A DNA stretch of 52,565 bases from Spirochaetaceae bacterium (GTDB lineage: Bacteria; Spirochaetota; Spirochaetia; Treponematales; Breznakiellaceae). This document shows positions 108 to 18,536 of this stretch, in pieces (positions within the stretch are counted from its first letter, which is position 1; each line of letters opens with the position of its first letter). The DNA is taken from contig JAITNZ010000098.1 in NCBI GenBank assembly GCA_031290205.1, positions 1 to 52,565 on the forward strand, written 5' to 3'. The notes beneath the pieces are model-generated. The model was not told the origin of the DNA, made no database searches, and was given only the letters and a program-made list of their open reading frames with translations. The translations under genes were made by a program, and so were the position numbers.

Positions 108-179
108 ACTTCCCCCCTCTTCCTCTTCCCCCTATACCCCAAACCCTATACCCCTTCTTCCCCCTACTTCTTCTTCAAA
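108..179 (+). repeat. C-rich heptad-word element (same family as 18698-18737 and 50484-50770), ending in CTTCTTCAAA
   Basis: acttcccccctcttcctcttccccctataccccaaaccctataccccttcttccccctacttcttcttcaaa. Shares the CCCCATA/CCCCAAA words and the terminal CTTCTTCAAA with the other copies. Overlaps the sbp stop in antisense. Confidence 0.6.
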
Positions 180-1228
180 TCGGTCATTATCTTGTCGAAT
201 ATGGCGCCGTCTGAAAAATGCTGCGCCTGTGCTTTGCGCCAGCCGCCGAAATCGCCGTCTATGGTCACGAGTTTTAATGCGGGAAACTGCGTCGAAAATT
301 CCGCCGCTATTTCGGGGTCGGTGGGGCGGTAATAGTTTTTGCCGGCGATGCGCTGCCCCTCGTTCGAATAGAGATGGCTGAGGTATTCGATGGCGATTTC
401 CCTTGTGCCGCGCTTGTCGACTATCGCGTCAACATAGGTGAGGCTGGGCTCGGCGAGTATGCTGAGGCTGGGCGCGACGATGTCAAACTTGCCGGGTCCG
501 AGTTCGTTGATGGACAGGTAGGCTTCGTTTTCCCATGCGAGCAGCACGTCGCCTAAGCCGCGCTGCACGAAGGTGTTGGTCGAACCGCGCGCGCCTGAGT
601 CGAGTATCGGCACATTGGCGAAGAGGCGTTTTACAAAATCCTCTGCAGCCGTCTCGCTGCCGTATTTTTCCCGCGCGAATGCCCATGCTGCAAGGTAATT
701 CCAGCGCGCCCCGCCTGAGGTTTTGGGGTCGGGCGTGATGACCTGAATGCCGGGTTTGACTAAATCATCCCAATCTTTGATGTTTTTGGGATTGCCGGCA
801 CGGACGAGAAAGACGATTGTCGAGGTGTAGGGGGCGCTGTTGTGCGGGAAACGGGCTATCCAGTTCTCCGCGATGATGTGGCGGGCATCGACTATGGCGT
901 CGATGTCGTAGGCGAGGGCAAGTGTCACGACATCGGCTTCGTTGCCTTCGATGACGCTGCGCGCCTGCCCGCCTGAGCCGCCGTGCGACTGGTTGATTTC
1001 AACGGTATCGCCGGTTTTTGCCTTGTAATAGGCTTTGAACTCTTCGTTATACGCGCGATACAGCTCGCGCGTGGGGTCGTAAGACACATTGAGCAGTGTC
1101 CAGTCTTTGCCCCCCTCCTGCACCGCCGCTGCGGCGCCCTCTTTCTTCGAGCAGCCAAAAAGGGCAAATGCTGCCAACAGAACCAAGACCATCCCGGCGG
1201 GACGAACAAACACAGTGAATTTTTTCAT
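164..1228 (-). CDS. sbp: Sulfate/thiosulfate ABC transporter periplasmic binding lipoprotein (Sbp/CysP family)
   Basis: Near full-length agreement by eye with E. coli Sbp blocks ([83 protein letters not shown]). Lipobox LFGC. Start trimmed to ATG at 1228, 8 nt after GGAGG. The track start at 1243 is a TTG inside that RBS. Confidence 0.92.
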
Positions 1229-1266
1229 AAATAGGACCTCCAATAATCCTTAGTAATTTTATAGGA

Positions 1267-1296
1267 ATTATAGGTGATAATGAAAAAAAATGTCAA
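1267..1296 (-). promoter_or_regulatory. Sigma-70-type promoter for sbp (TTGACA-18-TATAAT)
   Basis: Minus strand reads TTGACA (1296-1291), an 18-nt spacer, then TATAAT (1272-1267), about 40 nt upstream of the sbp ATG. Confidence 0.6.
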
Positions 1297-2030
1297 TACC
1301 CTCCAGCGCCTCCCGCACTTATGCTGCCCCCGCGATTTTAATCGCGGGGCACGGTCGGGCGGGGGAGGCTTACCAGAAAACAGGCGCCCATTTCCTAAGC
1401 AAGTCGTTATCCTCCTCCGCTGCCCTTATTGCCACTTAGGAAAAGCATTGCCCGAATGCCGGCGAATAGCCGGCTAAAGTTGCCTCCCAGCGAAGTTTTC
1501 TGGCAAACCTCCCCCGCCCGACCGTCTACGTCAGCAAATTCCCCCTTAGCATAAGTGCGTGAGGGCTTCCCGACCTACTGGCTAGGTGTTGGGGTTATTG
1601 GCTAACAGTGAAGACCTACAGTAAAACCCAACGGTAAAGTGCGCGGTAACGAGTATGGCGGTGAGCGCTGGCGCGTCCGCGCTTGTGCCGCCGAGCGAGA
1701 AAGCCGTCCCCCTGCCTAAGTGCGTGAGGGCTTTTCGGACGAATTGGGTGGGCGTTGGGGTTAACGCCTTACAGTGAAGGCTTTAGAGTAAGCCCCCTAT
1801 CAGTAAAACGCGCGGTAACGAGGATGGCAGGAGCGCGGGCGCGTCAGCGCGCGTGCCCTGACCGAGAAAGCCTTCCCCCAAACCTCCCCCGCCCCGCCCA
1901 ATGAATGCGCCCGAATGGGCGTTGTTGCGGCTAATCGTTCATGGCGTGGCGCAGGACGCCCTAACACTACCAGTAATTGCAGGCTCACCTTGAGGTGAGC
2001 CTGTGTGCCGCCACCCCAACTAAGCATGAA
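1291..2030. repeat. Composite intergenic repeat, locus A (module 1 with a 9-bp hairpin, two ~165-bp tandem units, module 3 with a 10-bp hairpin)
   Basis: Module 1 (1291-~1400) recurs at 24618-~24725 and inverted at ~35990-36114. It contains ccccgcgat-ttta-atcgcgggg (1328-1349). Units starting taagtgcgtgagggctt at 1552 and 1717 recur at 24973, 25130 and 25352. Module 3 (1880-2015, hairpin aggctcacc-ttga-ggtgagcct) recurs at 24815-24950. Confidence 0.85.
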
Positions 2031-2033
2031 GGC

Positions 2034-2062
2034 TTGACACTCAGCCGTCTTTCGGTAAAAAT
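2034..2062 (+). promoter_or_regulatory. Candidate promoter for the island operon (TTGACA-16/17-TAAAAAT)
   Basis: TTGACA at 2034-2039 sits at the right edge of repeat locus A. An A/T-rich -10 candidate lies at 2056-2062. About 110 nt upstream of the ATG at 2174. The -10 is ambiguous in A/T-rich sequence. Confidence 0.35.
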
Positions 2063-2173
2063 AATAACAAACAGATGATAGTATGGGGAGCGGGGACTAT
2101 TAAAAAATATCAGGGGAATGTTGGTAAAATTTCGTTGGCGGACATCCAGCGCAAAAAGATAAAGGAATATACA

Positions 2174-3577
2174 ATGAAAAACTTTGGACGGTTCAGCCGT
2201 TTTTTTGCTTTTGTTGCCGTTTTTTCTGTCGGCACACTTATTTCATCGTGCGGCATTGACCCGTGCTATATTGGAGTAGCAGACAATCCGGAAGAAAGTG
2301 TTATTGATTCCGAATTGCAGGTAAATTACTTTTTCGACAGAACGGAATCGCTTGGGGGCTTTACTCAAGACGGCAAAGAAACGACTTACGGCCGGGCAAT
2401 CGACAGCACCCTGACGGTAGGGCAAACACTTGGCTACGAAACTACCTCGTTTTATGAATTTGGCGAGGCTGTTACCTGCAAATTATCATTTAACACGCTT
2501 ACGATGCAAAAAGAGATAAAAAAGAAAAGTTTTTACGGAGACGGTTATACCTACCAAAATGACAAAAACCGCACGGTCGTGTACGAGAACGAAAGCCAGC
2601 CCTTTAGTTCCGTTGTCGATTATATCAAAACCGAGACTGATAAAAACAGCTTAAATATTGTGGTAACTGATTTATATGAGCAGTTTGGCATTAATCAATA
2701 TTTTCATCTTTTATTTCAAAACGCCTTTCGGAACGGACTCTCTGGCGCGATTTTTGCCGTTCAATCCGAATTCAAGGGTAACATCCACAGCATATCATCT
2801 TCTAACGATAGTCTTTACGGTGTGAACGGTTATTCAACCTTTTTTCTTTTAATTACAGGAGACAAGGACACCATAGAGAAATACGGCACTGGTCTTTCCG
2901 AAGAACTTAAAGGAAAAAAAATAAAATTCAATTACACATTGTTTTTACCTGGAGGCGTTTTTTACAAAGGAGAGAAAAAACAACCAGAGTATCGAACGAT
3001 CGGGAATGAAAAACAATTTCAAGCTGCGAGCGAAAGGCATATAATGGTAAACCTTAATCCGGCAGGACAATTTATACAACGCTGGAAGAAAAAGGGCGGC
3101 GCTTTTGTTCCGGTTAAGGCAAATGCTGAAGGCTACTTGGCTGTAACAAATATTGATTCGCAATATGTATATAAAGTTCCTTTTGGCAGCGATGACGATT
3201 CCAGTCCTACCGTCCTGAATATGATGGTAGAATATTTTAACGGTAGGAAAACCCCGCCCGGAAACGCATCTCGTTTTGAAAAAATTTCAGCAAGTGGCAA
3301 AATTGAAGAGGCGCTTGCCGATAAAACAGACGGTTTTAATTATATAAGCATAAAAATCCATAACAAGAAACTTGATAAAGGATATTATAGAGTAAACTTT
3401 GATATAATACCTGATTGGGTAAACGCTCTTGACGCAAATGTTGCTGAATTAAAAGCAAGCAATAAACGGGGTGAGCTCGTCAAAGTGCTTAACTTGAAGT
3501 TAATATATGACCGTATATTAAAAGAATTTAACAAAATTGACGGTTTTTCAGAAGTTTTTTATATTGTTAAAAATTAA
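2174..3577 (+). CDS. Island gene 1: lipoprotein of unknown function, possible vWA-like fold
   Basis: Long ORF in ~33% GC DNA. Start trimmed to the ATG at 2174 (AAGGA 7 nt upstream), giving MKNFGRFSRFFAFVAVFSVGTLISSC, a signal peptide plus lipobox. NYFFDRTESLGGF resembles a D-x-T/S-x-S MIDAS strand and NIVVTDLYEQ resembles a vWA beta-4 strand. These are motif-level resemblances only. Confidence 0.85.
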   Translation: MKNFGRFSRFFAFVAVFSVGTLISSCGIDPCYIGVADNPEESVIDSELQVNYFFDRTESLGGFTQDGKETTYGRAIDSTLTVGQTLGYETTSFYEFGEAVTCKLSFNTLTMQKEIKKKSFYGDGYTYQNDKNRTVVYENESQPFSSVVDYIKTETDKNSLNIVVTDLYEQFGINQYFHLLFQNAFRNGLSGAIFAVQSEFKGNIHSISSSNDSLYGVNGYSTFFLLITGDKDTIEKYGTGLSEELKGKKIKFNYTLFLPGGVFYKGEKKQPEYRTIGNEKQFQAASERHIMVNLNPAGQFIQRWKKKGGAFVPVKANAEGYLAVTNIDSQYVYKVPFGSDDDSSPTVLNMMVEYFNGRKTPPGNASRFEKISASGKIEEALADKTDGFNYISIKIHNKKLDKGYYRVNFDIIPDWVNALDANVAELKASNKRGELVKVLNLKLIYDRILKEFNKIDGFSEVFYIVKN

Positions 3578-3607
3578 AAAAGCACTTGGTATTTTTAGGA
3601 GAATAGT

Positions 3608-4126
3608 ATGTTCGGAATATTTTTTAAGTCCTCATGGAAAGCGCTGCCTTTTATTGCGCTGTTGCCTCTTTTAGTTTGTGTATTGTATATTACCGTGATT
3701 GACCCCTACGGCGGTATCCTCATTTCGGGAATGGGGAGTGAAGCGGTAAGCGATCATCAGTGGGAATTTCAAGAGAGCGAGAAAACATTTTTCGGATTTA
3801 ACGACCATCTAGGATTTCAATCAATAAAAAGAAGTATGATACTCGCAATGGTAGTGAATCTTATTTTGTTGATGATCATTCCATGCGCCTTTGGCGGAAC
3901 TGTTTCCGGAAAAAAAAGGGCGCAGTTTTATTTGGGGTTTTTCATCAATTTAGCGATTTGTTTAGGATTCCCGATTTATTTTAATACTATCTTCGTGCTC
4001 GATGCAAGCACTCTTTTCATGCTTATAGCGCTACATCTTGCCGGTTTTATGCTGCCGTTTATTTTAGGCGCTTTATTCGTGGCGCCGGCTTATAAAATGG
4101 CTTTTTGGTTCATTAACAGAAGATAA
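3608..4126 (+). CDS. Island gene 2: small integral membrane protein (about 4 TM helices)
   Basis: AGGAG RBS 8 nt upstream. Four hydrophobic segments (ALPFIALLPLLVCVLYITVI, MILAMVVNLILLMIIPCAFGG, FYLGFFINLAICLGFPIYF, LFMLIALHLAGFMLPFILGALFVAPAY). 30-nt gap from gene 1. Confidence 0.8.
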   Translation: MFGIFFKSSWKALPFIALLPLLVCVLYITVIDPYGGILISGMGSEAVSDHQWEFQESEKTFFGFNDHLGFQSIKRSMILAMVVNLILLMIIPCAFGGTVSGKKRAQFYLGFFINLAICLGFPIYFNTIFVLDASTLFMLIALHLAGFMLPFILGALFVAPAYKMAFWFINRR

Positions 4127-4146
4127 CAAATCAACAGGAGCGAACA

Positions 4147-7100
4147 ATGTCAACATTACACATTATTGGAATCGGCGGAACAGGGCATAAACTTATCACA
4201 GCCTGTATTCATCTGGCTGCGTGCGGCGCGTTTAAGGGTAAAGGCACGAACGACATTAACTTGATACGCATGATAACTATTGATGCGGACGATTCAAACG
4301 GCAATCTTTCACACGCCAAACAGGTAGCTGCTTCTTACCATAAATTTTATTCGGTACTCGGTCAATCACAAACTCTCGGTCTTGTGGAGATACAGCCTTT
4401 AACAAGCGTGAGGCTCTATCAAAACGATAAAAAAAGCATAAACGAAACATTTAACATTGCACAGTACCGCGATACGGATACGGATAAGTTTGTTCACTTC
4501 CTCTATACCAAGGAAGAAATCGAGACTCAATTTGACCAAGGATTTTACGGGCATACGTCAATAGGCACTTTGATTGTAAAAAACATCCTGAAACAAGATG
4601 AAAACTGGCAGGGTTTTTTATCAGGTATATATGAAAATGATTTTGTGTTTGTACTCGGTTCCATTTTTGGGGGGACGGGCGCATCCGCAATACCCGTTGT
4701 GCTTGACGAGCTTAAAGAGCGGCAAAAGGAAGACGCGATCAAGTATGCGGCATTGATACTTACCCCCTATTTTAATACGATTGGCGACATAAAAGAAGAA
4801 GGTGTATTACAGCCGGATTCTAAAAATTTCCAGGTTAAAGCAAAAGCAGCCCTGTATTATTATGAAAAAGAAAAACAAAACGAAAATGCCGACGCAATAT
4901 ATATAATCGGAGAACCCAAGGAAAACTTTTCAAACGAAGCCGCCTCGCGCGGTGCGTCTGATCAACTTAACAAAGCTCACATGGTCGAACTGTTTGCGGC
5001 AAGCGCGATAATTGATTTTATTAAGTATGCTAACGACAGACCAAAACAAAAAATTATCACCGCTGAGCGGGAAACATTGAACGGTGAATACTATTATACA
5101 TGGAATATGCTGCACAAGATTGATGCTCTTTTGCCGGAAAAAATAAAAAAACTGATAAAGGCGGCTATTTTTTATAACAAGGTGCTGTACCGGGATTTGA
5201 TCAACAATGATGAAAAATCTGGAACATGGATAGGAAATTACAATAAAGAGTTGCTTTCGAGGATAGACGACGACCAAAATCTTTTATACGAAAATATTTA
5301 TGCGTATTTTACAAAACTCATCCGGTGGTTTTACGATTTGCATAAAAGAAATTCAGCGGAAATAGACCAAAATTCAGGCAGACCGAAATGGTCTGACGAT
5401 AAAAGGGCAAAGCTCTTTCACGCCGAATACTTGGCGCTTTTTGACGAAAGTAGCGTTCAAGGATCGGACATTAAAGATTTTGAAAAGTTAGTCTATAACG
5501 ATGAGAATCCGAAAAAGTCCGAAAAGATTTATGTCCAGATTTGTAGCGCTAAAGGCGCCGGATTTATCCCGCTTTTTGATGCTTTGGATGCCGCAATAAC
5601 AAGCAAAAAACGCGGCTTGTTTGATCCTAAACCCGAAAAAATCCCGGAAAATTTTACTATCGTTCCTTATTTATCAAAGGAAAACAATGCGAGCTTTACG
5701 AGGCAAAATGCCGATACTAACCAGCTCTGGTCATATTCCGAGTCGTCGCTTCTAAGCAAAATTGCAGACGGACTCCCCTTTGTCTTAGGCGATGAATTTA
5801 CAAAAGACGATATTTCAATTCCTTCACCATGGTCTATATTTATTAGTAATGAATTGACATTGACAGAAAAAAAGTTTGCGGGATTAAATAAAACTTCCTA
5901 TAATCAATGGTGCGGTTTTTTAGCATTGCTTGCGCTTAGAAAACTGCGTCGTTATGAAAACGATGGTTTGGAGTTAAAACAGCTATCCCTTGATGATGGA
6001 GAGTTTGTAAAAACCGTAGGGGACACATGCATCCCCTATAGTTTTATTTTTGATAATCGGCAGTGGACTACTTGTTGGAATATTTCTCTTGACGGGGAAA
6101 CCATAGGCTTCCTTGCGGTGAATACGATTGTTTGTCCCGCCTATTCGTTTTCCGCAAAAACCAAAACAAAACTTCATCAAATGGCTCCCAGTATAGTAAA
6201 CGAAAATGGTGAATTTTTAAGTCCCGACAACTATTTTGCCGACCAGAGTCAAAGAGTAAACCGCGATGCTCGGTATGCCCTCTCTATTTTCTTGTCCGAG
6301 CTCAAGAGAATAATACGAACAGAGGCTGCCACGAATGAAAAACCAATTATCAATTCTTTGCAACACCTCATAGAAAAGTTTATTGAAAGCTTAGGTAGAA
6401 CAAGCTCAAACCCAGATATATCAATACCTAATTATCAGCCCCCCACTGATATTCGTGATCTTTTTGACAAATTAGACATACAGAGCAATGCAATAATAGA
6501 ATTACCATTCCGTCTTACCGGAACAAAAAAGAATGCTGTTTTAATTGGATTGAATGTTTGCGGTATTGGTTCTTCTACACCTCAAGCAGCCTCAATTTTT
6601 ATCACCCCCAATTACAAATACAACCAGATTAATGCAGATAGTATCCAGCAATTATCGGGAAACGATAAAGACGGGTATCTACTACTTTATGATATTGAGT
6701 TGCTTTGCGATACCATGCTGATAATTAAAAAAGACGATACTTCGGTATTTCATACTCTGTCAAACAACAACAGCTCGTTACCTGGCATTGATGTAATATG
6801 GCCCGTAAATGAGCGGCTGCTTGAATTGTATGACGCTGCACAGATCAACGGGATGCTGGGTATAAGTAAAAATGATGATACGTTTACCGTTTCTTTAGAC
6901 CTTAAATTGGCTTCGGGAAAAACTCATACTGTAACAAAAAGTTACAAGATTAAAAGCGGGGATTCCAATGCGGAAGACGCCGACAATTCGGGGTTTTGTT
7001 ATACGTTCGATAGGGAAAACCTGCCTTTGTGGGCAGTCTGGCCATACTCAGAAATATTAAACACCGAAGGCAAAAATACATGGAAGCGCTACAATTGTTA

Positions 7101-9087
7101 TTGTGCGGAGCTTAAACAGACCGGCAGTCTGAAGGTAATGGAAATTGATCCGGTGTTTCCTTCGGGCGACAAGATAAGCAATCAGGATGATGAAAAAAGG
7201 CTTTCGATTATCAGTACCGGACAGCGTGATATATATTACAAAAGGTATAAGACGCTTCCCTCGGCATTTAAATTTAAATTGAAGTATGATGCGAATATCC
7301 CTGCTGTTTACCGGGGGCTTGTTTTCCTTGAGCAAGCCAAGCAGTATCAGGCAGCTAATGTCGAATGGAATATAGGTCTTGATTTCGGAACCACATCTAC
7401 TACCGTTTTTTATACCACAAATTCCGCTGATTCTGCGCTTGAATTTCTCCAATTACTTACCGAATACACATGGAAGGAAGGTAATCCAAATCCGCAAGAA
7501 ACCAAAAAAATCGAGAATGATATGGTTGTTGTATGTAACAGTGGTGGAAGAGACTTACAAGATTTGTCGTACTATTTTATTGATGATAAATGCTTAAAAC
7601 AAAAAGGGTATATTACCGCATACGAACTCTTAGACACCACAGGGGGGTCTGCGGAGGATACGGTCTTTAAGTCGGGACGTATCTTCTGGCACAATGAGCG
7701 CAATCTTAAAATTGTTAATGCCACAGAAGGCAGGCGGGATAATCTGCAAACAAATATCAAATGGGATGAAAACCGCGATTACATAGGCAAGTTTCTAAAC
7801 CAACTTTTAACGCAAATAGTTTATAACGCAGCCAGTAAAGGTGTGCGTAAAATCAACTGTTTTTTTTCGTATCCTACGGCATTTAGTTTTAGAGAAAAAG
7901 GTCTTTTTCGCGATACGCTTGAGCGACTAGTTGAAGGCATCGAGGAGGATACTGGGGTTGAAATCACATTTAAGCCCGAAAACCTTATAACGGAAAGTAT
8001 CGCTGCGGCATTTTATTTTAGAAAAGATTCGCGGCACAGGCTTTTTCTTTGCGTTGATATTGGAGGCGGCACAAGCGATGTTTCAATCTGGACGCCTGAT
8101 GTAAATTTGTTTCAAACTTCAATTCGTTTTGCTTCGCGCAATATGTTTATTGCCCCGCTTGAACGGCTTCTTAAAAGAAAAAGCGTCATGGATGTGGTGC
8201 GAAGTCCTGATGTTGCAGACGGCATTCACACGATGCTTGAATACGGCGGCGGCGATACCCCCAATTCAAAAGATAAGATTAAATTCTTTATCGAAACTGT
8301 TCTATTTGAATATTACGATAAATTTAAACAAAGGCTGGATTCTCTTAAAGGCGAAGATGAACTCTGCTACAAAAACTTTAGATATTGTGTTTTTATTGCT
8401 TATTCTGCATTGTGTTACTATCTGGCAAATATCATCGTTTCATTATTAAAAGTTGGAAAAATTGATAACGATGTTACCGACCTTGTATTCGGGCTTTCCG
8501 GCAAGGGGTCCAAGCTGACAGATTGGATAAAAGAAATTTGCCCTAAAATTTACGAAGAAATTCAAAGCTTTATACTGGAAAAAACCGGAGTTTCAATTAA
8601 ATTCCGTCCGCAATTTTCCGCCGACTCCGCCAAGACAGAGACCGCCAAAGGGCTGATTTGTAATTTGGTAAACGGCAAACAGAAAGAATCAGGCGAAGGC
8701 GCGGAACCCATGATGTATTTAGGAAGCAGTATAGAATTGGCAAAAGGATCTGATACTCCACGTTGTTACAGCAAGGCTGATTTTGTTAATGTATATACGG
8801 ACGAGTTGATCAAAAATCCCGTGGAATTAAAAGTAAGCATAGACAGGGAACTGGCGGATTTCGGCGAGTTTTTAGATTTCTTTAACAGGCTTGCAGAAAA
8901 GACACGTGGGGAAATGCCGGAGATCTCAATTGATTGGTATCAAAAAAACAAAAAATCTTTGTGGAATCAAATAGAAAAAGTCTTTAACGACATCTTAAAA
9001 GATAAGCGTTTCGAGCCTCCTTTTATCGTCATAATCAAAGAATTTTTACAATTTTATACCGAGGAGTACTTGTATGAAAACAAATAA
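4147..9087 (+). CDS. Island gene 3: 1646-aa fusion of an FtsZ/tubulin-like GTPase domain (N-terminal) and an actin/Hsp70-like ASKHA ATPase domain (C-terminal)
   Basis: A 4.9-kb ORF in AT-rich DNA, with AGGAG RBS. N-terminal motifs: IIGIGGTGHK (aa 6-15), ITIDADD (43-49), GFYGHTSIG (132-140), GSIFGGTGASAIPVV (171-185). C-terminal motifs: NIGLDFGTTSTTV (1075-1087), LCVDIGGGTSDVSIW (1301-1315), LVFGLSGKGSKL (1446-1457). Domain calls rest on motifs, not on an alignment. Confidence 0.9.
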   Translation: MSTLHIIGIGGTGHKLITACIHLAACGAFKGKGTNDINLIRMITIDADDSNGNLSHAKQVAASYHKFYSVLGQSQTLGLVEIQPLTSVRLYQNDKKSINETFNIAQYRDTDTDKFVHFLYTKEEIETQFDQGFYGHTSIGTLIVKNILKQDENWQGFLSGIYENDFVFVLGSIFGGTGASAIPVVLDELKERQKEDAIKYAALILTPYFNTIGDIKEEGVLQPDSKNFQVKAKAALYYYEKEKQNENADAIYIIGEPKENFSNEAASRGASDQLNKAHMVELFAASAIIDFIKYANDRPKQKIITAERETLNGEYYYTWNMLHKIDALLPEKIKKLIKAAIFYNKVLYRDLINNDEKSGTWIGNYNKELLSRIDDDQNLLYENIYAYFTKLIRWFYDLHKRNSAEIDQNSGRPKWSDDKRAKLFHAEYLALFDESSVQGSDIKDFEKLVYNDENPKKSEKIYVQICSAKGAGFIPLFDALDAAITSKKRGLFDPKPEKIPENFTIVPYLSKENNASFTRQNADTNQLWSYSESSLLSKIADGLPFVLGDEFTKDDISIPSPWSIFISNELTLTEKKFAGLNKTSYNQWCGFLALLALRKLRRYENDGLELKQLSLDDGEFVKTVGDTCIPYSFIFDNRQWTTCWNISLDGETIGFLAVNTIVCPAYSFSAKTKTKLHQMAPSIVNENGEFLSPDNYFADQSQRVNRDARYALSIFLSELKRIIRTEAATNEKPIINSLQHLIEKFIESLGRTSSNPDISIPNYQPPTDIRDLFDKLDIQSNAIIELPFRLTGTKKNAVLIGLNVCGIGSSTPQAASIFITPNYKYNQINADSIQQLSGNDKDGYLLLYDIELLCDTMLIIKKDDTSVFHTLSNNNSSLPGIDVIWPVNERLLELYDAAQINGMLGISKNDDTFTVSLDLKLASGKTHTVTKSYKIKSGDSNAEDADNSGFCYTFDRENLPLWAVWPYSEILNTEGKNTWKRYNCYCAELKQTGSLKVMEIDPVFPSGDKISNQDDEKRLSIISTGQRDIYYKRYKTLPSAFKFKLKYDANIPAVYRGLVFLEQAKQYQAANVEWNIGLDFGTTSTTVFYTTNSADSALEFLQLLTEYTWKEGNPNPQETKKIENDMVVVCNSGGRDLQDLSYYFIDDKCLKQKGYITAYELLDTTGGSAEDTVFKSGRIFWHNERNLKIVNATEGRRDNLQTNIKWDENRDYIGKFLNQLLTQIVYNAASKGVRKINCFFSYPTAFSFREKGLFRDTLERLVEGIEEDTGVEITFKPENLITESIAAAFYFRKDSRHRLFLCVDIGGGTSDVSIWTPDVNLFQTSIRFASRNMFIAPLERLLKRKSVMDVVRSPDVADGIHTMLEYGGGDTPNSKDKIKFFIETVLFEYYDKFKQRLDSLKGEDELCYKNFRYCVFIAYSALCYYLANIIVSLLKVGKIDNDVTDLVFGLSGKGSKLTDWIKEICPKIYEEIQSFILEKTGVSIKFRPQFSADSAKTETAKGLICNLVNGKQKESGEGAEPMMYLGSSIELAKGSDTPRCYSKADFVNVYTDELIKNPVELKVSIDRELADFGEFLDFFNRLAEKTRGEMPEISIDWYQKNKKSLWNQIEKVFNDILKDKRFEPPFIVIIKEFLQFYTEEYLYENK

Positions 9088-10459
9088 GGTAGTTTTAATC
9101 TTAGCAACTTTATTATTTTTTATCAGTAATATATATGGTCAAGGGGCTGATGATGCACAGGATGTGCATCAACCAAGTAGTATAAAACAAGCGCCGCAAA
9201 ATGACGGGTCTCAAGGAAATACTGGGGAAACTGAAAGCACTGCAGGCAAATCAGGCAATGCCGGTGCACCTGTGCAAACAAGGAACCAAACAAATAATTA
9301 TGTACAACAGCAACGAAACTCCGCGAAAAGAAAAATTGATACTATGGTAAAAGATAATGAGTATGCAGAAAGCAGATTAGTTATGATTAATCACTTAAAA
9401 AGCGAGGCGATAAAAAGTATTGAAGATGCGCAATCCGAAGATATTGACGGTATTATTAACCGTTTTAAGGCTGGCATTGAAGAAATTCCAAGTAACACAA
9501 AAATAGAATCATTCGAGTCGGCGATAAATAACCATTTAAGAGTCGGCGTAAAATCCGACGATTATACCGTTTATAAACTAAACGAAATACAGAGCTTAAG
9601 AGAGGAATTCAAAAACAATATCGACTCATGGCAAAGCGTACAAAAAATAGAGGAGGAAATTAATAGAGTTATCAATGAAATAGACAAGATTCCGACTGCA
9701 AAAGAACAGGTAGACGAACTAATACAACAACACTTGAACGACAGAATAAGCACCATAGAAAAAGATATTGCCGAAAAGACGCCTTTTGAATTCTTAAAAG
9801 AACAAGCCATCGCGTTAGTAGGGGTTTTACTCGCACTGGCGATAGTTGCTTTATTAATTATACATATAAGAAAGGTAAAAAAGAATTTAGGCGATAACAA
9901 GAGTGATATCGACGCCAATCAAGTTGTTATCAAAGAAATACAAGAATGGATAAAAAATACTGACGAGCGGATTAACGAACAAAAATCGAAGTACCGCAGT
10001 CTTGAAAATAAAATTTCGGATAACGAGAATAGCAGTAAAAGAAATTTTGATAATTTAAGTAAAAATATCGAATTACAAAAAACCGCTTTGTCGAGCGAAA
10101 AAATTGCACCGGAACTAATACCCGATGATCCGGTAGATGATTTTAATAATTGGGCTTGTAATCCACTAAAAATACTCCCGTCACGTTTTTATTATCTAAA
10201 AGGTGATATTAAAGTAAGGAACGAACAGATTTTTGTAGAATCTGAGGCGGAAAGCAAATGGATTACAAACAGACTAGGAGCGCAAAAATACCTTTTCCCT
10301 AATCCGCGTTTTTTTTATGAAGCAACGGATATAAGGGAATTGTATAAAATAACGGGGACGTTAAAAGCGAAGGGGCAAAACAATATACGAATAAGCGAAC
10401 CCTGCAAAATACTCGATAAGGGTTATATTAATTACGCTGGTAAACTAACGTTGTTGTAG
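9074..10459 (+). CDS. Island gene 4: bitopic coiled-coil membrane protein with a conserved ~105-aa C-terminal domain
   Basis: Overlaps gene 3 by 14 nt. GAGGAG RBS. Sec-type signal MKTNKVVLILATLLFFISNIYG, then a Q/N-rich and helical region, then the TM ALVGVLLALAIVALLIIHI (~nt 9808-9870), then coiled-coil. The C-terminal domain (nt 10142-10456) is paralogous to nt 10848-11162. Confidence 0.85.
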   Translation: MKTNKVVLILATLLFFISNIYGQGADDAQDVHQPSSIKQAPQNDGSQGNTGETESTAGKSGNAGAPVQTRNQTNNYVQQQRNSAKRKIDTMVKDNEYAESRLVMINHLKSEAIKSIEDAQSEDIDGIINRFKAGIEEIPSNTKIESFESAINNHLRVGVKSDDYTVYKLNEIQSLREEFKNNIDSWQSVQKIEEEINRVINEIDKIPTAKEQVDELIQQHLNDRISTIEKDIAEKTPFEFLKEQAIALVGVLLALAIVALLIIHIRKVKKNLGDNKSDIDANQVVIKEIQEWIKNTDERINEQKSKYRSLENKISDNENSSKRNFDNLSKNIELQKTALSSEKIAPELIPDDPVDDFNNWACNPLKILPSRFYYLKGDIKVRNEQIFVESEAESKWITNRLGAQKYLFPNPRFFYEATDIRELYKITGTLKAKGQNNIRISEPCKILDKGYINYAGKLTLL

Positions 10460-10481
10460 GAAAATTGACACAGGAAACAAT

Positions 10482-11165
10482 ATGACTCCAGAAGCAGCGC
10501 AGCCCCAAACACAAAACATACCGATAAATAATACTCTCCAAGATAATGATATGCAAGCAATGGTGCAACTTCTCCAGCAAGTATCAAATCATTTCAAAAT
10601 TTGTCAAAGCAAGAAAAAGAATGAAATCAACGAAAAAGATTCCTATATATGGAGGCTTTCCGACGCATATAAAAAGTTGCAGCAAGAGAATGTTTCATTA
10701 AAAAATGAATGTAATAAAATAGAACAGGAAAAGATAAATTTATTACAGGAAAACAACAAGCTACGTCAAGAAAATTTTACTCTAAAACAAAAAAACAATG
10801 CGCCGCCTATAATAAACAATGTGGGGGATAATAATATAATCGTCGAATTTAACGCATGGGCGTCGAATCCGGTAAATCATTTGCCGGTAAGTTTTAAGTA
10901 TATAATCGGAGATATAAAAGTCCGAAACGAGCAAGCGCTCACGGAATCCTCTGTCGAAACCAAATGGATTACCAATAGGAACGGGAGCAAAACTTATCTA
11001 TTCCCCAATCCGCTTTTTTTTTACGAAGCAACAGACATAAGGGAATTGTATAAAATAACAGGGGCATTAAAAGCCAAGGGGCAAAACAAAATACAAATCA
11101 TCAAAGCATGTGAAATTCTCGATAAAGGTTATATTAATTATCCCGGAGAATTACAATTGATATGA
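10482..11165 (+). CDS. Island gene 5: soluble coiled-coil protein with the same C-terminal domain as gene 4
   Basis: AGGAA RBS. Heptad-like LQQENVSLKNECNKIEQEKINLLQENNKLRQENFTLKQ. The C-terminal 105 aa are about 70% identical (hand count 73/105) to the C-terminus of gene 4. Confidence 0.85.
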   Translation: MTPEAAQPQTQNIPINNTLQDNDMQAMVQLLQQVSNHFKICQSKKKNEINEKDSYIWRLSDAYKKLQQENVSLKNECNKIEQEKINLLQENNKLRQENFTLKQKNNAPPIINNVGDNNIIVEFNAWASNPVNHLPVSFKYIIGDIKVRNEQALTESSVETKWITNRNGSKTYLFPNPLFFYEATDIRELYKITGALKAKGQNKIQIIKACEILDKGYINYPGELQLI

Positions 11166-12766
11166 ATGAGCAAATAGTAATTGCGTATTCCGCATGGTTC
11201 CTGCTATGTTATTTAATTCCTTTAATCGTTTTTAATAAAAGAAATATAACGACAAAAGACATGATAAACCTTAGCAATCTAAAACTCCAAGCGGTATTTG
11301 ATAATCAAAAGGACAATGTTGTTTCAATAAGCAGCGACTTCCCAGGGTTTTTGAAAAATCTTGAAAAAACAAAGAACAATCTTGTGATTCGTATTCTGCG
11401 TCGTATGTGTAACGACGCTAAATCGGGGCTTAGGTTAAATCCTAATGTATATATTTTGAACTACAAAGATATGTGCCGGGGTTTTGTTTTTTATATATTT
11501 TTATCCGCGCACATTCCATTCATTGCTCTCTATCTTATCGACGCAGACTTTATTTCAAAATTAATTTTTATGCAATCAAGTTCCTATGTGCTTATTCTGT
11601 TGTTGAAAAAAAGCACCGACCATAAAACATCGCTGTTTTGCAAGAATTTTTACACTCATTGGTATGATAAGATTCTGAATTTCGATTTAATTGCTATAAA
11701 CGCGCTTAAACCTGCCGTTTTAAGCGCGTTAAACACCGAAATAAATAACAATCTGCTTGCCGCGGTTAAATCCTTTGCACAAGAGGACGAAGCCCAATTC
11801 AACAAGCTCGCTTTTGCCGCACAGGATTTATCATTACATTTAGAGAAATTTACCGAATTGCAAAATGGAAACGGAAGTATAACGGCGGATAAGATAACTC
11901 ATTCACTGGATAATATTCTAAAAAAAATTATTGAACTTAATGCTGATTTTGACAAAATGAATGGGGTTATGACTACTTCATTCTCGAATCTTGTTAGTAT
12001 TTCAGATAACAATAAACTTGATATTAACGCAATGAATCAAAATGCTTGCCTTTTACGAGAACTAAAAGATGCTTTTGTGTCATACCAAAGCGAAGCCTTA
12101 TCCCCGGCATTGGCTCATCTTCAGAAAATATCTTCCTCACTTGAAAATGATATTAGCAAAACTTTTGCCTCTATCGATACGACGATAAGTACGAATACCG
12201 AAAAATTACTTTCAAGTTACGAACGGTTTTTTGAAATTTGCGAAACATTTAACAAGTCTATGTCAGTTTATTACGAATCAGGCAATATTGATACGCTCAA
12301 ATCCTTAAACGAAACGTTCTTCGATGAACTTGAAAAGATTGGGAATCAAAACAGGGAAATACAGATTGCTTTTAAGAGCTGCTCCGATTCGACGAAAAAA
12401 CTTTGTGAATCAACCTATGATTTTGCCCAGTATACCAATTCTTCGGATTTTATGAATAAGATACGCAGCAACATCAATTTTCGAAAGCGCCTTAACGCTG
12501 CACAGGAAAAATTAGTATCTTATGAAAAAATTGTTAAGCTATACGAAGAGAACAGTGATTTATCCGCAGAGGATATTAAAAAACAATTTTATAATCTACT
12601 AAATGCACTTGAAGGTGATTTTAATACTCGCATACTTTATCTTGAAAATCGCTTAGATGCGCTCGAAGCACAGGCAACGCCCCATCGACAAACTCAGGGA
12701 CCGGCGCCAGTTGCTGAGCCTGTCGAAGCAATAGAAAATCCAGTCCCTAAAATAAATGGGCAGTAA
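11162..12766 (+). CDS. Island gene 6: polytopic membrane protein with a long helical cytoplasmic region
   Basis: ATGA 4-nt overlap with gene 5. Hydrophobic segments IVIAYSAWFLLCYLIPLIVF, GFVFYIFLSAHIPFIALYLI and SSSYVLILLL. About 350 aa of helix-rich sequence follow, then a Pro/Ala-rich tail. Confidence 0.8.
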   Translation: MNEQIVIAYSAWFLLCYLIPLIVFNKRNITTKDMINLSNLKLQAVFDNQKDNVVSISSDFPGFLKNLEKTKNNLVIRILRRMCNDAKSGLRLNPNVYILNYKDMCRGFVFYIFLSAHIPFIALYLIDADFISKLIFMQSSSYVLILLLKKSTDHKTSLFCKNFYTHWYDKILNFDLIAINALKPAVLSALNTEINNNLLAAVKSFAQEDEAQFNKLAFAAQDLSLHLEKFTELQNGNGSITADKITHSLDNILKKIIELNADFDKMNGVMTTSFSNLVSISDNNKLDINAMNQNACLLRELKDAFVSYQSEALSPALAHLQKISSSLENDISKTFASIDTTISTNTEKLLSSYERFFEICETFNKSMSVYYESGNIDTLKSLNETFFDELEKIGNQNREIQIAFKSCSDSTKKLCESTYDFAQYTNSSDFMNKIRSNINFRKRLNAAQEKLVSYEKIVKLYEENSDLSAEDIKKQFYNLLNALEGDFNTRILYLENRLDALEAQATPHRQTQGPAPVAEPVEAIENPVPKINGQ

Positions 12767-12781
12767 CAGGGTGAAACAATT

Positions 12782-13945
12782 ATGGAAAATATACCGCTCG
12801 TCATCTGTGGCGTTCCTCTAGTATTCGGGTTATTGAACTTATGTATTGAATTAAAATTACTCACCATAAGAAACAAACCGATACGGTATATTACCTCGTT
12901 TTTTGTTCGTGTTTACGATAATTGTTTTATTCCCCTCTCTGTTATAACAATAGTATATTACACGCTTACTATTTTTCTTGATGGCAAGAGTGGACTCTTT
13001 TTGATTTGTATCGGATGCTTTGTCTTAGCAGCATTTGTCATTAACACAATCAGGGAACGGACTTGTTTTTTTACTTCGCCCGACGACTATGAACCTCAAC
13101 ATAGTGAATATAAAGCCGCTTTTACCTTTATAGATACTTACCATGAAATAACAAAACTCAACAGAAATGTATTACAGGATATTGCGGAACGAAAAAAACT
13201 TTTGCATGATAAGCACAATGAACTCGAAAATCTTATTGCAACGGCAACTAAAAATATAAACAACTATGTAGTATTTCAACAAGAGGGATGTTCGCTATTG
13301 TTTGCCAAAAAAAAACAATGTGAAGCAATATATGTAATTCTGGAACAGACCGCTGAAAAGCTCAATGATACTTTAACAAAACTAGCGCAGAGACTGGAGT
13401 ATTCAGCGGCGGCGCTTTGCTACTACGGTGAAAGCGATGTTTTGATTAAAGACATCCATACTTCTTTTAAAGATGCGTATAATCAAAATAATGAAGAAAC
13501 TATGCGAAACATCGAAAAGATTCTATCAGATTTAAGCGTATTGGCATTCAAATGCGCCGACATTCAATCTTTTCCAAAATCGTATAATAATGCCATCAGT
13601 ATTTATTCAGGGAAAATAATGAGCGTATTACAAATGTTCGAGCGGGAAAGCACAGAGAACAAAGAACAGATAACACAACTCTGCACCGAAATCTTAGAAA
13701 AGCTTATCGGAAAAGAAAGAGAAATGGTTGAAGTAAATAAGAGGTCCATGGAATATATCCTCAAAAACAATTTTGTGCTTTCAAAGATAGCTCAAAGTTA
13801 TGATAATTCAATTATTGCTTTCAAAAATCCAAACATTTATAATTCGACATTACGCAGGCGAAAAACCTTTTGCGACAAGTGCGGCACAAAAATTGAAGAG
13901 ACACATACACGATGTCCGAGATGTGGTACTTCAATTTATGTTTGA
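12782..13945 (+). CDS. Island gene 7: membrane protein with a helical region and a C-terminal zinc ribbon
   Basis: 15-nt gap from gene 6. Three N-terminal hydrophobic segments. The C-terminus is CDKCGTKIEETHTRCPRCGTSIYV (CxxC-N10-CxxC). Confidence 0.8.
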   Translation: MENIPLVICGVPLVFGLLNLCIELKLLTIRNKPIRYITSFFVRVYDNCFIPLSVITIVYYTLTIFLDGKSGLFLICIGCFVLAAFVINTIRERTCFFTSPDDYEPQHSEYKAAFTFIDTYHEITKLNRNVLQDIAERKKLLHDKHNELENLIATATKNINNYVVFQQEGCSLLFAKKKQCEAIYVILEQTAEKLNDTLTKLAQRLEYSAAALCYYGESDVLIKDIHTSFKDAYNQNNEETMRNIEKILSDLSVLAFKCADIQSFPKSYNNAISIYSGKIMSVLQMFERESTENKEQITQLCTEILEKLIGKEREMVEVNKRSMEYILKNNFVLSKIAQSYDNSIIAFKNPNIYNSTLRRRKTFCDKCGTKIEETHTRCPRCGTSIYV

Positions 13946-13969
13946 AGTGCAATAAATGCATTTCCCCAG

Positions 13970-14248
13970 CTATAATGATGTTTCAAGGATATTCCTGAGG
14001 GCGCTCCCGCTTCCGCAGTGGGATTGCACAAGGGTAATCCCACGGCTTGCCGCTTCTTTGCGCGCGACTTTTGCCATATCATGTGAAACCGGATTCGTAA
14101 AAAGAACGATTAAATCCGGGTTCCCGATGAGGCAGTTCAAATTACATTTCTTCTGGGTAAACACCTTCGCCTTACAGCCAAATTCTTTACAGATGTCCTT
14201 ATACTGACAATGCATCCCATCGTGCCCACCGACAATAACTACACTCAT
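13970..14248 (-). CDS. DUF2325-like small protein
   Basis: 92 aa. AAGGAG RBS. MSVVIVGGHDGMHCQYK...DLIVLFTNPVSHDMAKVARKEAASRGITLV matches my memory of the DUF2325 pattern (ivGGhd...D.vi.ft..vsH). The flanking GC level resumes at this gene. Confidence 0.6.
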   Translation of the reverse strand: MSVVIVGGHDGMHCQYKDICKEFGCKAKVFTQKKCNLNCLIGNPDLIVLFTNPVSHDMAKVARKEAASRGITLVQSHCGSGSALRNILETSL

Positions 14249-14338
14249 TTTGACTCCTTTTTACCCACATTTGTAAGTATTAATTGCATATTTTCACCTT
14301 TTACTTGTTATTCTTGTTAGTTTAATCTAACAAAAGTT

Positions 14339-14367
14339 ATGTTAGAAGAAACTAACAAAAATGTCAA
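14339..14367 (-). promoter_or_regulatory. Candidate promoter for the DUF2325 gene (TTGACA-17-TAACAT)
   Basis: Minus strand reads TTGACA (14367-14362), a 17-nt spacer, then TAACAT (14344-14339). Confidence 0.35.
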
Positions 14368-14566
14368 TACTGGTGTCTGATTTGTATCTCGTTTCTTAAT
14401 CCGTTCGAGCCCTGGGAGTCGTAACACCTGCCTAGCAGCCTGTCGCTCTTCATCTGGGAAACACCCTGATAGTGTGAAAGATACCGGACAAAATCGGGGG
14501 ATTTGTTCATCTATCTTACCTCTTTTAAGTTCGTTTTGCACAGGGGGGGGAAGTGCAACAGGCTGC

Positions 14567-14595
14567 TAGACACCGTTTCTGTTTCGTTCTACAAT
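14567..14595 (+). promoter_or_regulatory. Candidate promoter for the DUF362 gene (TAGACA-17-TACAAT)
   Basis: TAGACA at 14567-14572, a 17-nt spacer, then TACAAT at 14590-14595, followed by a GAGGT RBS and the ATG at 14615. The -35 overlaps the right arm of a 12-bp inverted repeat. Confidence 0.45.
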
Positions 14596-14614
14596 AGAAA
14601 TTGAGGTACCAAAA

Positions 14615-15727
14615 ATGGCAAAATCAGCAGTCTACTGGACGGATATGAGGTGCAAAAATGGCGATAGCCTTCTTGCAAAGCTGGAGCGGCTTATTAAAAA
14701 AGCGGGAATCGGCGGTATTGACTTTAAGAATAAATATGTGGCAATCAAAATACACTTTGGGGAGCCGGGTAATCTTGCCTTCCTCCGCCCGAACTGGGCG
14801 CGGGTTGTCGTTGACTATGTGAAAAGTGAGGGCGGGATGCCGTTCCTTACCGATTGCAATACGCTCTATGTCGGGCGGCGGAATCAGGCGCTCAACCACA
14901 TGGATGCCGCCTTCGAAAACGGTTATTCGCCTTTTGCAACCGGCTGCCACAATATCATCGCCGACGGGCTCAAGGGGACCGACGGCGTTGATGTTCCCGT
15001 TACGAACGGCGTTTACTGCAAAGTTGCGAATATCGGGCGGGCGATCATGGATGCCGATATTGTCATTTCGCTGAATCATTTTAAGGGGCATGAGCTTGCC
15101 AGCTTCGGCGGGGCGATAAAGAACCTCGGCATGGGGAGCGGCAGCCGCGCCGGTAAGATGATAATGCACAACGAGGGGAAGCCCGAGGTGCGGGAAGAGC
15201 GGTGCACGGGCTGTAAGACCTGCACTCACTACTGCGCGCAGGGAGCTATCAGCATGAGTGCACAAAAAAAAGCCCATATCGACCAGACTAAGTGCGCGGG
15301 CTGCGGGCGCTGCCTCGGCGTCTGTAATCAGAATGCTATCGAAAATAATTCAGGGGGGAGCGCGGATGTCCTCAATTACAAGATGGCTGAATACGCGAAA
15401 GCTGTTGTCGACGGACGTCCGAACTTCCATATCAATGTGATAAATCAGGTGTCGCCATACTGCGACTGTCATGGCGAAAACGACGCGGCAATCATTCCCG
15501 ATATAGGCATCTTTGCGGGCTTCGACCCCGTTGCACTCGACAAGGCCTGTCTCGATGCGGCGAATGCGGCGCCCGTTATCAAAACGAGCGTTCTGAGTGA
15601 GCGTGAGGAAAAACATCGCGACCACTTTCGGGATGTGCATCCTACGACGAACGGCATCACTCAGATTACCCACAGCGAAAAAATCGGGCTGGGGAATTCC
15701 GCTTACGAACTTACTTTTGTAAAGTAG
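14615..15727 (+). CDS. DUF362 domain protein with a 2x[4Fe-4S] ferredoxin-type insert
   Basis: The N-terminus VAIKIHFGEPGN..FLRP...FLTDCNTLY is typical of DUF362/COG2768. Two CxxCxxCxxxC clusters are present (CTGCKTCTHYC, CAGCGRCLGVC). Confidence 0.8.
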   Translation: MAKSAVYWTDMRCKNGDSLLAKLERLIKKAGIGGIDFKNKYVAIKIHFGEPGNLAFLRPNWARVVVDYVKSEGGMPFLTDCNTLYVGRRNQALNHMDAAFENGYSPFATGCHNIIADGLKGTDGVDVPVTNGVYCKVANIGRAIMDADIVISLNHFKGHELASFGGAIKNLGMGSGSRAGKMIMHNEGKPEVREERCTGCKTCTHYCAQGAISMSAQKKAHIDQTKCAGCGRCLGVCNQNAIENNSGGSADVLNYKMAEYAKAVVDGRPNFHINVINQVSPYCDCHGENDAAIIPDIGIFAGFDPVALDKACLDAANAAPVIKTSVLSEREEKHRDHFRDVHPTTNGITQITHSEKIGLGNSAYELTFVK

Positions 15728-15741
15728 GGGGAGAGAAAAAC

Positions 15742-18534: not shown

Positions 18535-18536
18535 TT

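Follow-up and report, generated by a model that had tools for sequence, protein, structure and literature searches.

What is encoded by an operon that joins a tubulin-like and an actin/Hsp70-like nucleoside triphosphatase (NTPase) in a single giant protein and places a lipoprotein and several membrane proteins beside it? This question is raised by a seven-gene cassette (g1 to g7, positions 2174-13945) in a 52,565-nucleotide (nt) contig of a Spirochaetaceae bacterium (Breznakiellaceae; contig JAITNZ010000098.1, assembly GCA_031290205.1), the whole of which we term the window. The cassette is well supported as a membrane-associated multiprotein system, the core of which is a tubulin-family GTPase working with a giant actin/Hsp70-fold ATPase, and it is likewise well supported as a horizontally transferred, self-contained operon. 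As to what the system does, we favour an envelope-linked, NTP-driven membrane assembly with a role in biological conflict, and assign to this reading as a whole a probability of about 0.42.

The central component is g3, a protein of 1646 amino acids (aa) that falls into three parts:

4147..5616, + strand: g3 residues 1-490, GTPase module (FtsZ/tubulin superfamily), then a helical region (from sequence and profiles)
5659..7350, + strand: g3 residues ~505-1068, conserved middle region with helices followed by a beta-rich part (from an AlphaFold2 (AF2) model and alignment)
7351..9087, + strand: g3 residues ~1069-1646, actin/Hsp70-fold (ASKHA) ATPase module with large helical insertions (from Foldseek and profiles)

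An initial annotation, made from the letters of the locus alone, had noted FtsZ/tubulin-like and actin/Hsp70-like motif sets in g3. Both hold up, the actin/Hsp70 fold by structure prediction and Foldseek, and the tubulin part by sequence profiles. Our comparisons draw on loci from metagenomes and species-representative genomes, which were analysed with our own open reading frame (ORF) calls, BLAST and iterated hidden Markov models (HMMs).

Motifs and profiles support the assignment of g3 residues 1-490 as a diverged GTPase module within the FtsZ/tubulin superfamily. This module carries the T1 motif GGTG (residues 10-13), the segment GFYGHTSIG (132-140), the T4 motif GSIFGGTGAS (171-180; GSIFGGTGAS..P, 171-183) and PYF (207-209). 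T1 and T4 are invariant in 45 close homologs and are kept in the Clostridia and cyanobacterial members. A candidate T7, Q273-x-N275-x-x-H-x-x-E281, is invariant across clades and lies ~68 residues past PYF (T5); it was assigned by this spacing, which we take to be close to the T5-T7 spacing of Escherichia coli FtsZ. Searched alone, residues 1-490 match the Pfam Tubulin family (PF00091) over residues 7-204 with E=4.2e-6 and 27.6 bits, below the cut-off of 33, and in a Pfam scan of full-length g3 the tubulin part yields a single sub-threshold Tubulin match at 118-203. Among 24 family members from two clades, 22 match PF00091 (E<=0.01; best 7.5e-7) and 15 match PF13809 (Tubulin_2; E<=0.01; best 1.7e-6). 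The g3 module itself scores 17.6 bits against PF13809 (cut-off 27), and its stand-alone relatives mostly carry precomputed PF13809 matches, marked 'faint' in loci L049 and L050. A profile of the module retrieves 39 PDB sequences, all of them FtsZ or CetZ, and the HMMER alignment to these proteins covers T4 and, weakly, T1. A comparison of the module family with an E. coli FtsZ sequence by hhalign aligned the T4 region alone (23% probability) and was uninformative.

The middle region of g3 (~560 residues) is modelled with confidence and contains many invariant aromatic and proline residues, e.g., in IPSPW (558-562) and WPV (885-887), and no PDB or Pfam match covers it. The last ~580 residues are, as judged from the structure model, an actin/Hsp70-fold ATPase with large insertions, because the AF2 model of residues 505-1646 (mean predicted local distance difference test (pLDDT) 80.9, predicted template-modelling score (pTM) 0.72) has DnaK, BiP, Ssz1 and MreB as its top Foldseek matches (E 2e-9 to 3e-7, probability 1.00). 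In total, 310 PDB entries match this model at E<=1e-3, and the target TM-score is about 0.5 for MreB versus 0.34 for full-length DnaK. The expected ATPase motifs are the phosphate-1 motif DFGTT (1079-1083), the phosphate-2 motif VDIGGGTSD (1303-1311) and the adenosine motif GLSGKGSK (1449-1456), and all three are invariant or conserved in every clade, out to the cyanobacteria. Profile searches with the module match DnaK, MreB and FtsA, and the phosphate-2 motif aligns with DnaK and MreB. Direct library scans give sub-threshold FtsA and HscA matches at g3 ~1275-1330, with NCBIfam scores of 15 bits for HscA (cut-off 743) and 13 bits for FtsA (cut-off 176), and none of the Pfam families HSP70, MreB_Mbl and FtsA is matched at its cut-off.

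The relatives of g3 occur in fused and in split form. About 55 full-length homologs share 36-72% identity with g3. In a distant clade (25-31% identity), which comprises Clostridia, Lachnospiraceae and other Bacillota metagenome-assembled genomes (MAGs) and includes several records from deer, rabbit or mouse-gut samples, g3 is represented by two adjacent genes. One of these encodes a tubulin-like protein of ~500 aa and the other a protein of ~1150-1200 aa, and the junction corresponds to residues ~485-505 of the fused protein. Across split-form loci, the middle region constitutes the N-terminal half of the separate second gene (~1100-1200 aa). An exhaustive phmmer search with the N-terminal unit of g3 retrieved 1,570 relatives at E<=1e-3 and 1,185 at E<=1e-10 (counted as 50%-identity representative clusters), nearly all of which are proteins of 480-520 aa. 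The tubulin-actin fusion is the rarer state, and two adjacent genes are the commoner form. Since both NTPases are fused in one 1646-aa protein, a Rosetta stone argument suggests that they act together physically. The source names returned for homologs of g3, g1 and the split tubulin-like protein all read 'hypothetical protein', except for one 'tubulin-like doman-containing protein' and one evident misannotation.

The seven genes, which the initial annotation had taken for one system, also co-occur outside the source genome. Homologs of g1, g2 and g3 are found in about 31-47 loci, those of the g4/g5 type in 24-28 and those of g6 and g7 in 19, and in both clades g1 and g2 homologs lie directly upstream of the tubulin-like gene. 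The cassette order is not due to chance, because it recurs in dozens of unrelated contigs with different flanks. The universal core consists of g1, g2, the tubulin-like and actin/Hsp70-like components and the proteins with a shared C-terminal domain (described below), and g6 and g7 are lineage-specific.

The system is present in Spirochaetota, Bacillota, Bacteroidota (a Tannerella MAG) and Cyanobacteriota, and a tubulin-like relative also occurs in an acidobacterial Bryobacteraceae MAG. A protein-level plasmid search located it on large cyanobacterial plasmids of Picosynechococcus PCC 73109, 7003 and 8807, Synechococcus NIES-970 and Gloeothece PCC 7822; the two plasmids examined, those of PCC 7003 (locus AWQ21_RS15655-15625) and Gloeothece (locus CYAN7822_RS34000-34025), are both typed as mobilizable. 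The cyanobacterial genes follow the order g1-like, 4-transmembrane (TM), tubulin-like and giant, succeeded by two to three bitopic or lipoprotein-type proteins, and one downstream protein has a bona fide TM2 domain. Even in the most distant members, the nucleotide-binding motifs of both modules are all kept. In PCC 7003 the mobilizable plasmid is 253 kb in size, and ~1.8 kb with two small hypothetical genes separate the cassette (L051, 1-5398) from a divergently oriented alternate F1F0 ATPase operon.

Several further relatives were encountered. Six distinct cassette variants with 36-46% identity to the window protein (L011, L013, L015, L018, L019 and L024) stem from the single metagenome Ga0209755, and therefore, cassette diversity within one community is high. 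Locus L050 encodes a different fusion within the tubulin-like family, a 1341-aa protein (10001-14026) that is preceded by a 157-aa protein and has no g1-like gene, and nearby lies a 1167-aa SACS (sacsin-like) protein (17395-20898). Given this difference in fusion and neighbours, the tubulin-like family has further architectures. Finally, a tblastn search matched Prevotella sp. oral taxon 299 (NC_022111.1, 624087-624692) with 30% identity to g3 109-297 (E=2e-15) at a place where no gene is listed; this stretch may represent a tubulin-like gene that is degraded or went unannotated in this human oral Bacteroidota genome.

What surrounds the two NTPases? The cassette opens with two genes for envelope proteins:

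2174..3577, + strand: g1, extracytoplasmic lipoprotein with an N-terminal alpha/beta domain, possibly vWA-like, and a C-terminal beta-sandwich region
3608..4126, + strand: g2, small polytopic membrane protein of 172 aa with 4-5 TM helices by hydropathy

The protein g1 has a signal peptide with the lipobox LISSC (N-terminus MKNFGRFSRFFAFVAVFSVGTLISSCG), and read from Met34 it begins with a classical lipoprotein signal (MKNFGRFSRFFAFVAVFSVGTLISSC). At the lipobox Cys, conservation reaches at least 90% among 32 homologs, Firmicutes members included, and the Gloeothece g1-like protein reads LLVSCK at this site. HMM homologs of g1 occur in 44 loci as well as in the Gloeothece and Picosynechococcus plasmid loci. 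In the AF2 model (pLDDT 82, pTM 0.82), an alpha/beta domain precedes a beta-sandwich region. The conserved segments YFFDRTxS ... VTDLYEQ are placed where a vWA domain carries the residues of its metal-ion-dependent adhesion site (MIDAS): D-R-T-x-S stands after the first strand and VTD at the end of a later one, to be compared with DxSxS...T...D of the MIDAS. Foldseek returned no significant match for g1 in PDB or BFVD; three independent, non-significant matches are to vWA-containing proteins, with E=4e-3 for SpaC, E=0.076 for the vWF domain of Mfa5 and E=1.2e-3 (probability 0.87) for a VWFA protein of Megaviridae, and the C-terminal half has weak Ig-like matches. None of the 32 g1 homologs matches a vWA Pfam family, the FNIII Pfam family does not match g1, and a g1 family profile found nothing among PDB sequences. 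For g2, the HMM finds homologs in 47 loci, in each case immediately upstream of the tubulin-like gene, and a 4-TM protein of g2 size takes its position in the cyanobacterial loci. In Pfam, NCBIfam, PADLOC and PHROGs, g2 has no family match.

The genes downstream of g3 encode further membrane and helical proteins, two of which end in the same domain:

9074..10459, + strand: g4, bitopic protein with a signal peptide, a low-complexity/helical ectodomain, a TM helix (residues 245-263), a cytoplasmic helical segment and the shared domain
10139-10456, + strand: shared C-terminal domain in g4 (residues 356-461), common to g5
10482..11165, + strand: g5, soluble coiled-coil protein ending in the shared domain (residues 122-227; nt 10845-11162)
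11162..12766, + strand: g6, membrane protein; three TM helices at its N-terminus and a helical domain of ~380 aa, found in the close clade only
12782..13945, + strand: g7, membrane protein; three TM helices at its N-terminus, a helical domain, and at its C-terminus a zinc ribbon (residues 363-384; nt 13868-13933)

The shared domain of 106 aa is 69% identical between g4 and g5 (E=3e-51). Every complete close-clade locus has two to three genes ending in this domain, and in two loci it is also fused to a g6-type protein (L001, 14418-16433; L012, 11282-13276). In the Clostridia loci, the giant gene is followed by a signal-peptide/lipoprotein-type bitopic protein and a soluble coiled-coil protein with a small common terminal domain, and some of these proteins bear zinc ribbons. 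Comparisons by hhalign link the domain of the close clade to that of the Clostridia (96% probability, E=3.5e-9) and the latter to that of the cyanobacteria (94% probability, E=1.1e-7). The domain sits on different carriers, among them a TM2-domain protein, a helical protein with 3 TM helices, a bitopic ectodomain protein and a soluble coiled coil. A profile of the shared domain found no relative in PDB, apart from one spurious MHC match. The zinc ribbon of g7 matches PF13240 with 26.2 bits (cut-off 25) and has CxxC pairs at 364 and 378. Profiles of g6 and g7 matched generic helical bundles in PDB, with no fold assignment, and the label 'coiled-coil' is used here on the basis of a composition heuristic and matches to helical-bundle or coiled-coil PDB entries. 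According to the predicted topology, g1 and the N-terminus of g4 lie outside, and the shared domain and the zinc ribbon inside the cell. The initial annotation had described these partners as a lipoprotein, a 4-TM protein, a bitopic protein, a soluble paralog with the same C-terminal domain, a polytopic protein with a helical domain and a membrane protein ending in a zinc ribbon, and the features found agree with this description in each case.

How is the cassette set into its genome? ORF calling in the window yields seven genes, all on the + strand (2075-3577, 3608-4126, 4147-9087, 9074-10459, 10482-11165, 11162-12766 and 12782-13945) and spaced by 30, 20, -14, 22, -4 and 15 nt in this order. 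A purine-rich Shine-Dalgarno (SD) sequence precedes each start (aggag, gaggag, aggaa, ggaga, gggtga); the first ORF opens at 2075, and the probable start of g1 is Met34 at 2174 with the SD aaagga. These results bear out the earlier description of co-directional, tightly spaced or overlapping ORFs with their own SDs. The span 2034-13945 given in that description covers the operon, and position 2034 marks no start codon; a promoter-like site begins there:

2034..2062, + strand: promoter-like TTGACA-17-AAAAAT upstream of the operon (consensus scan)

Promoter-like sites are no more frequent in the region than in shuffled sequence, and therefore, this site is weak evidence for a promoter. The cassette has a guanine-plus-cytosine (GC) content of 37.7% versus 50.5% in the remainder of the window, and hence forms a low-GC island (2174-13945). 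It is preceded by an ordinary chromosomal gene for an ABC solute-binding protein and followed by genes for DUF2325, a DUF362 Fe-S protein, a DAC-domain (CdaA-type) protein, a YbbR-domain protein and TruA. Scans of the window for tRNAs and with Rfam gave no matches, no integrase was found among the flanking ORFs scanned, and the island borders carry neither an integrase gene nor a tRNA gene. Positions 1-16000 had no megablast match in E. coli genomes, and thus the host is not E. coli.

Just 5' of the island, a GC-rich non-coding stretch (1300-2030) contains two tandem units of ~166 nt (about 1549-1714 and 1714-1880), the sub-blocks of which are 74-95% identical, as well as a 31-nt inverted repeat (1351-1381 / 1495-1525) with 94% complementarity. 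The stretch has no match in Rfam and could be a structured RNA, a repeat element or an insertion scar. An exact 14-nt direct repeat, AAAAATGTCAATAC, is present at 1286-1299 and 14357-14370 and encloses the upstream repeats, the island and the DUF2325 gene. Its chance expectation between both flanks is ~0.002 by our own estimate (product of flank lengths / 4^14). Since both copies overlap minus-strand TTGACA -35-like boxes, the repeat may represent related promoters rather than attachment sites or a target-site duplication. Elsewhere in the window, a second low-GC patch (27358-32811) encodes a Wadjet-type system with JetA (PF18982, E=5e-106), a DUF4194 JetB-like protein and a 1132-aa SMC/SbcC-like, JetC-like protein, preceded by a GAF sigma-54 activator; the ~13 kb between the cassette and this patch hold housekeeping genes. 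On the minus strand, 19655-24565 encodes three consecutive BspA-type leucine-rich-repeat proteins (PF13306), possibly surface proteins.

How might such a system work? We propose that the two NTPase modules would self-assemble in a nucleotide-dependent manner at the cytoplasmic side of the membrane, comparable to FtsZ and FtsA. Docking would fall to the shared C-terminal domain, which would tie variable membrane and coiled-coil proteins to the NTPase assembly, and g1 together with the g4 ectodomain could couple the assembly to what happens in the envelope. As the output, the TM partners g2, g6 and g7 would alter the membrane, by either remodelling or permeabilisation. In a conflict setting, this sequence would amount to an envelope-triggered response of the anti-phage, anti-mobile-element or abortive-infection type.

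The conflict role is the least certain part of this reading; we favour it over housekeeping membrane remodelling, and rate it somewhat short of an even chance. Indirect support for it comes from the patchy distribution, the anomalous GC content, the carriage on mobilizable plasmids in cyanobacteria and the way in which the shared domain and zinc ribbons are shuffled between the variable membrane proteins encoded downstream. Moreover, the exposed lipoprotein and the TM proteins diverge fastest: the median identity among homologs is 49% for g3, the most conserved component, and 33% for g6, 31% for g1 and 27% for g7, the fastest-evolving one, and one metagenome, Ga0209755, holds six variants. A thematic likeness to membrane-proximal systems with tubulin, Hsp70 and vWA components (PMC7159879) points in the same direction.

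A number of observations weigh against it. In 23 loci, 108 flanking genes were scanned with PADLOC and Pfam; the flanks vary from locus to locus and consist of miscellaneous housekeeping genes with scattered PADLOC or defence-like matches, with no enrichment of defence or mobile-element genes and no recurrent integrase or transposase. None of the components has a significant match in PADLOC-DB v2, where marginal matches (E 0.002-0.03) concern the phosphate-2 motif or coiled-coil regions only, and the cassette proteins have no meaningful homologs in PHROGs and the phage collection. The cassette also lacks any recognisable domain of a toxin or an effector enzyme. At the level of mechanism, the catalytic T7 of the tubulin-like module is a candidate chosen by motif spacing, and the actin/Hsp70 fold by itself does not tell a filament former from a chaperone-type ATPase. 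Likewise, the vWA fold of the N-terminal half of g1 is a possible lead and not an established fold, and we infer polymerisation, docking through the shared domain and sensing by g1. A phage origin of the cassette was considered separately and rejected, as PHROGs and the phage collection gave no meaningful matches.

Could the cassette encode an accessory cytoskeletal or membrane-remodelling apparatus with no role in defence? Membrane-tethered filaments of a second FtsZ-FtsA-like pair would then shape or pinch the membrane, for instance to form vesicles, to maintain the envelope or in a specialised event of division or differentiation. In favour of this, both cytomotive folds have intact nucleotide motifs, the partners are all membrane, coiled-coil or lipoprotein components with no enzymatic effector among them, and the loci lack a defence-island context. 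One bitopic partner has a weak DivIC-like match, the giant protein has weak FtsA and MreB matches, and a precedent exists in the proposal of Makarova and Koonin for FtsZ-like families (PMC2875224). It would, however, be unusual for a housekeeping structural machine to spread sporadically and horizontally, to sit in a low-GC island in the window or on plasmids in cyanobacteria, or to have variable, shuffled downstream genes and fast-diverging exposed parts. We consider this explanation unlikely on balance, albeit a serious one.

A second alternative holds that the cassette serves envelope biogenesis or quality control, with a chaperone-type Hsp70-fold ATPase acting under a tubulin-like GTPase in the assembly, insertion or extraction of the co-encoded membrane proteins and lipoprotein. 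Hsp70, DnaK and BiP are the best structural matches, the large conserved region ahead of the ATPase could bind a client, and Hsp70 and tubulin have both been counted among regulatory NTPases (PMC7159879). However, Pfam and NCBIfam scans show no signature of an Hsp70 substrate-binding domain, the loci contain no DnaJ or GrpE partner, and the NCBIfam HscA score stays far below its cut-off (15 versus 743 bits). In addition, MreB scores nearly as well as the chaperones and reaches the higher target TM-score (about 0.5 against 0.34 for full-length DnaK). The chaperone explanation is improbable. The reading as a DNA-segregation module of a mobile element, comparable to TubZ/TubR and ParM/ParR, was rejected as highly improbable, since despite relatives on cyanobacterial plasmids and a weak PHROG 'partition protein' match on the actin-like region (E=8e-4), the cassette has no DNA-binding adaptor and no centromere-like repeats, its partners are a lipoprotein and membrane proteins, its proteins are several times larger than TubZ or ParM, and most loci, including the one in the window, are chromosomal with housekeeping flanks.

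The two principal families of cytomotive proteins are the tubulin-fold and the actin-fold NTPases. To our knowledge, and as far as the literature was searched, neither a natural fusion of the tubulin and actin folds nor a system with both as obligate neighbours has been described, apart from FtsZ-FtsA in cell division. The cassette may tentatively be taken to represent an unrecognised, widespread class of machines, although the odds are rather against it: here the tubulin-family GTPase and the actin/Hsp70-family ATPase would be obligate partners, assembling jointly at the membrane with adaptors of their own that all bear one docking domain, as an FtsZ-FtsA-like pair employed for a task other than division, such as envelope-triggered membrane disruption in defence or the formation of vesicles or compartments. 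If the system indeed assembles at the membrane upon envelope events, it would constitute a mechanism of bacterial immunity or a machine for membrane remodelling, new in either case, and it would provide the first defined partner set for the long-uncharacterised FtsZ-like/Tubulin_2 group. The family is large and effectively unannotated, joins both major cytomotive folds and exists in cultured hosts; the plasmid versions in cultured Picosynechococcus and Gloeothece suggest that it is directly testable by genetics and imaging.

Which described systems does the cassette resemble? The initial annotation recognised it as no known secretion, division, motility or defence system, and searches of Pfam, NCBIfam, PADLOC, PHROGs, PDB and the literature likewise placed it in no characterised system. 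Literature searches found neither a tubulin-based defence system nor work on the cyanobacterial genes. The statement that nothing characterised matches therefore stands, but the system is not without relatives, because its tubulin-like module falls in or near the FtsZ-like/Tubulin_2 group, which has been described computationally. Makarova and Koonin (2010) defined the families FtsZl1 and FtsZl2 within predicted membrane-remodelling operons (PMC2875224), and Tubulin_2 (PF13809) has been equated with their 'FtsZ-like' proteins (PMC9871819). As in FtsZl1/FtsZl2, the cassette features a diverged tubulin-superfamily GTPase that lacks the FtsZ_C and Tubulin_C domains, a sporadic occurrence across phyla, an operon rich in membrane proteins and maybe an extracytoplasmic vWA-like partner. 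In contrast, the FtsZl1 architecture of an FtsZ-like domain, a long coiled-coil stretch and a helical C-terminal domain is absent here, where the module is either ~500 aa long or fused to the giant protein. The FtsZl operon partners, i.e., a bona fide vWA protein, a P-loop GTPase, a protein kinase and OmpA, are also absent from the cassette, in which the kinase and OmpA Pfam families have no match. Conversely, a giant actin/Hsp70-fold partner is not mentioned in PMC2875224 (the term 'Hsp70' occurs 0 times), and g2 and the shared-domain proteins are likewise undescribed there.

The GAP1-N2 GTPase-centric conflict systems, defined computationally by Kaur, Burroughs, Iyer and Aravind in 2020 (PMC7159879), are similar in that they are membrane-proximal and multi-gene and rely on tubulin homologs or proteins of Hsp70 fold for NTP-dependent assembly or regulation. 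They also share extracellular partners (vWA-type there, possibly so in the cassette), TM-rich partners, zinc ribbons, variable linked genes and predicted cytoskeleton-like complexes. Yet, their hallmark, a TRAFAC GTPase with N-terminal zinc ribbons, is absent: the only zinc ribbon of the cassette is the C-terminus of g7, a motif scan of g1-g7 found no Walker A motif/P-loop, and library scans gave no match to a P-loop family. Nor was a GAP1 protein recognised, in libraries that contain no GAP1 model. PMC7159879 describes two neighbourhood themes that do not overlap, one of tubulins and extracellular vWA proteins and one of Hsp70 and GrpE, whereas the tubulin and Hsp70 folds always come together in the cassette loci, even fused, with neither GrpE nor DnaJ. 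The host range differs as well, since the Kaur systems are reported to be enriched in multicellular actinobacteria and firmicutes, and the cassette occurs in gut spirochaetes, Clostridia and on cyanobacterial plasmids. Given the lack of a P-loop protein and of GrpE/DnaJ, and the combination of both folds, the cassette is akin to the Kaur systems in theme and outside them by membership.

FtsZ-FtsA (and MreB-RodZ) resemble the cassette in pairing, at the membrane, a GTPase of tubulin fold with an ATPase of actin fold and in having bitopic coiled-coil proteins alongside (compare FtsL, FtsB/DivIC and RodZ). In contrast to FtsZ-FtsA, the cassette proteins score far below the family cut-offs, are 2-4 times larger and belong to an accessory, horizontally transferred system outside the dcw and mre clusters; FtsZ-FtsA is the closest mechanistic analogy, one that applies at the fold level only. 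Taken together, the cassette is best classed with the computationally known FtsZ-like, tubulin-centred membrane systems, among which its partner set was previously undescribed and its tubulin-actin fusion is unusual.

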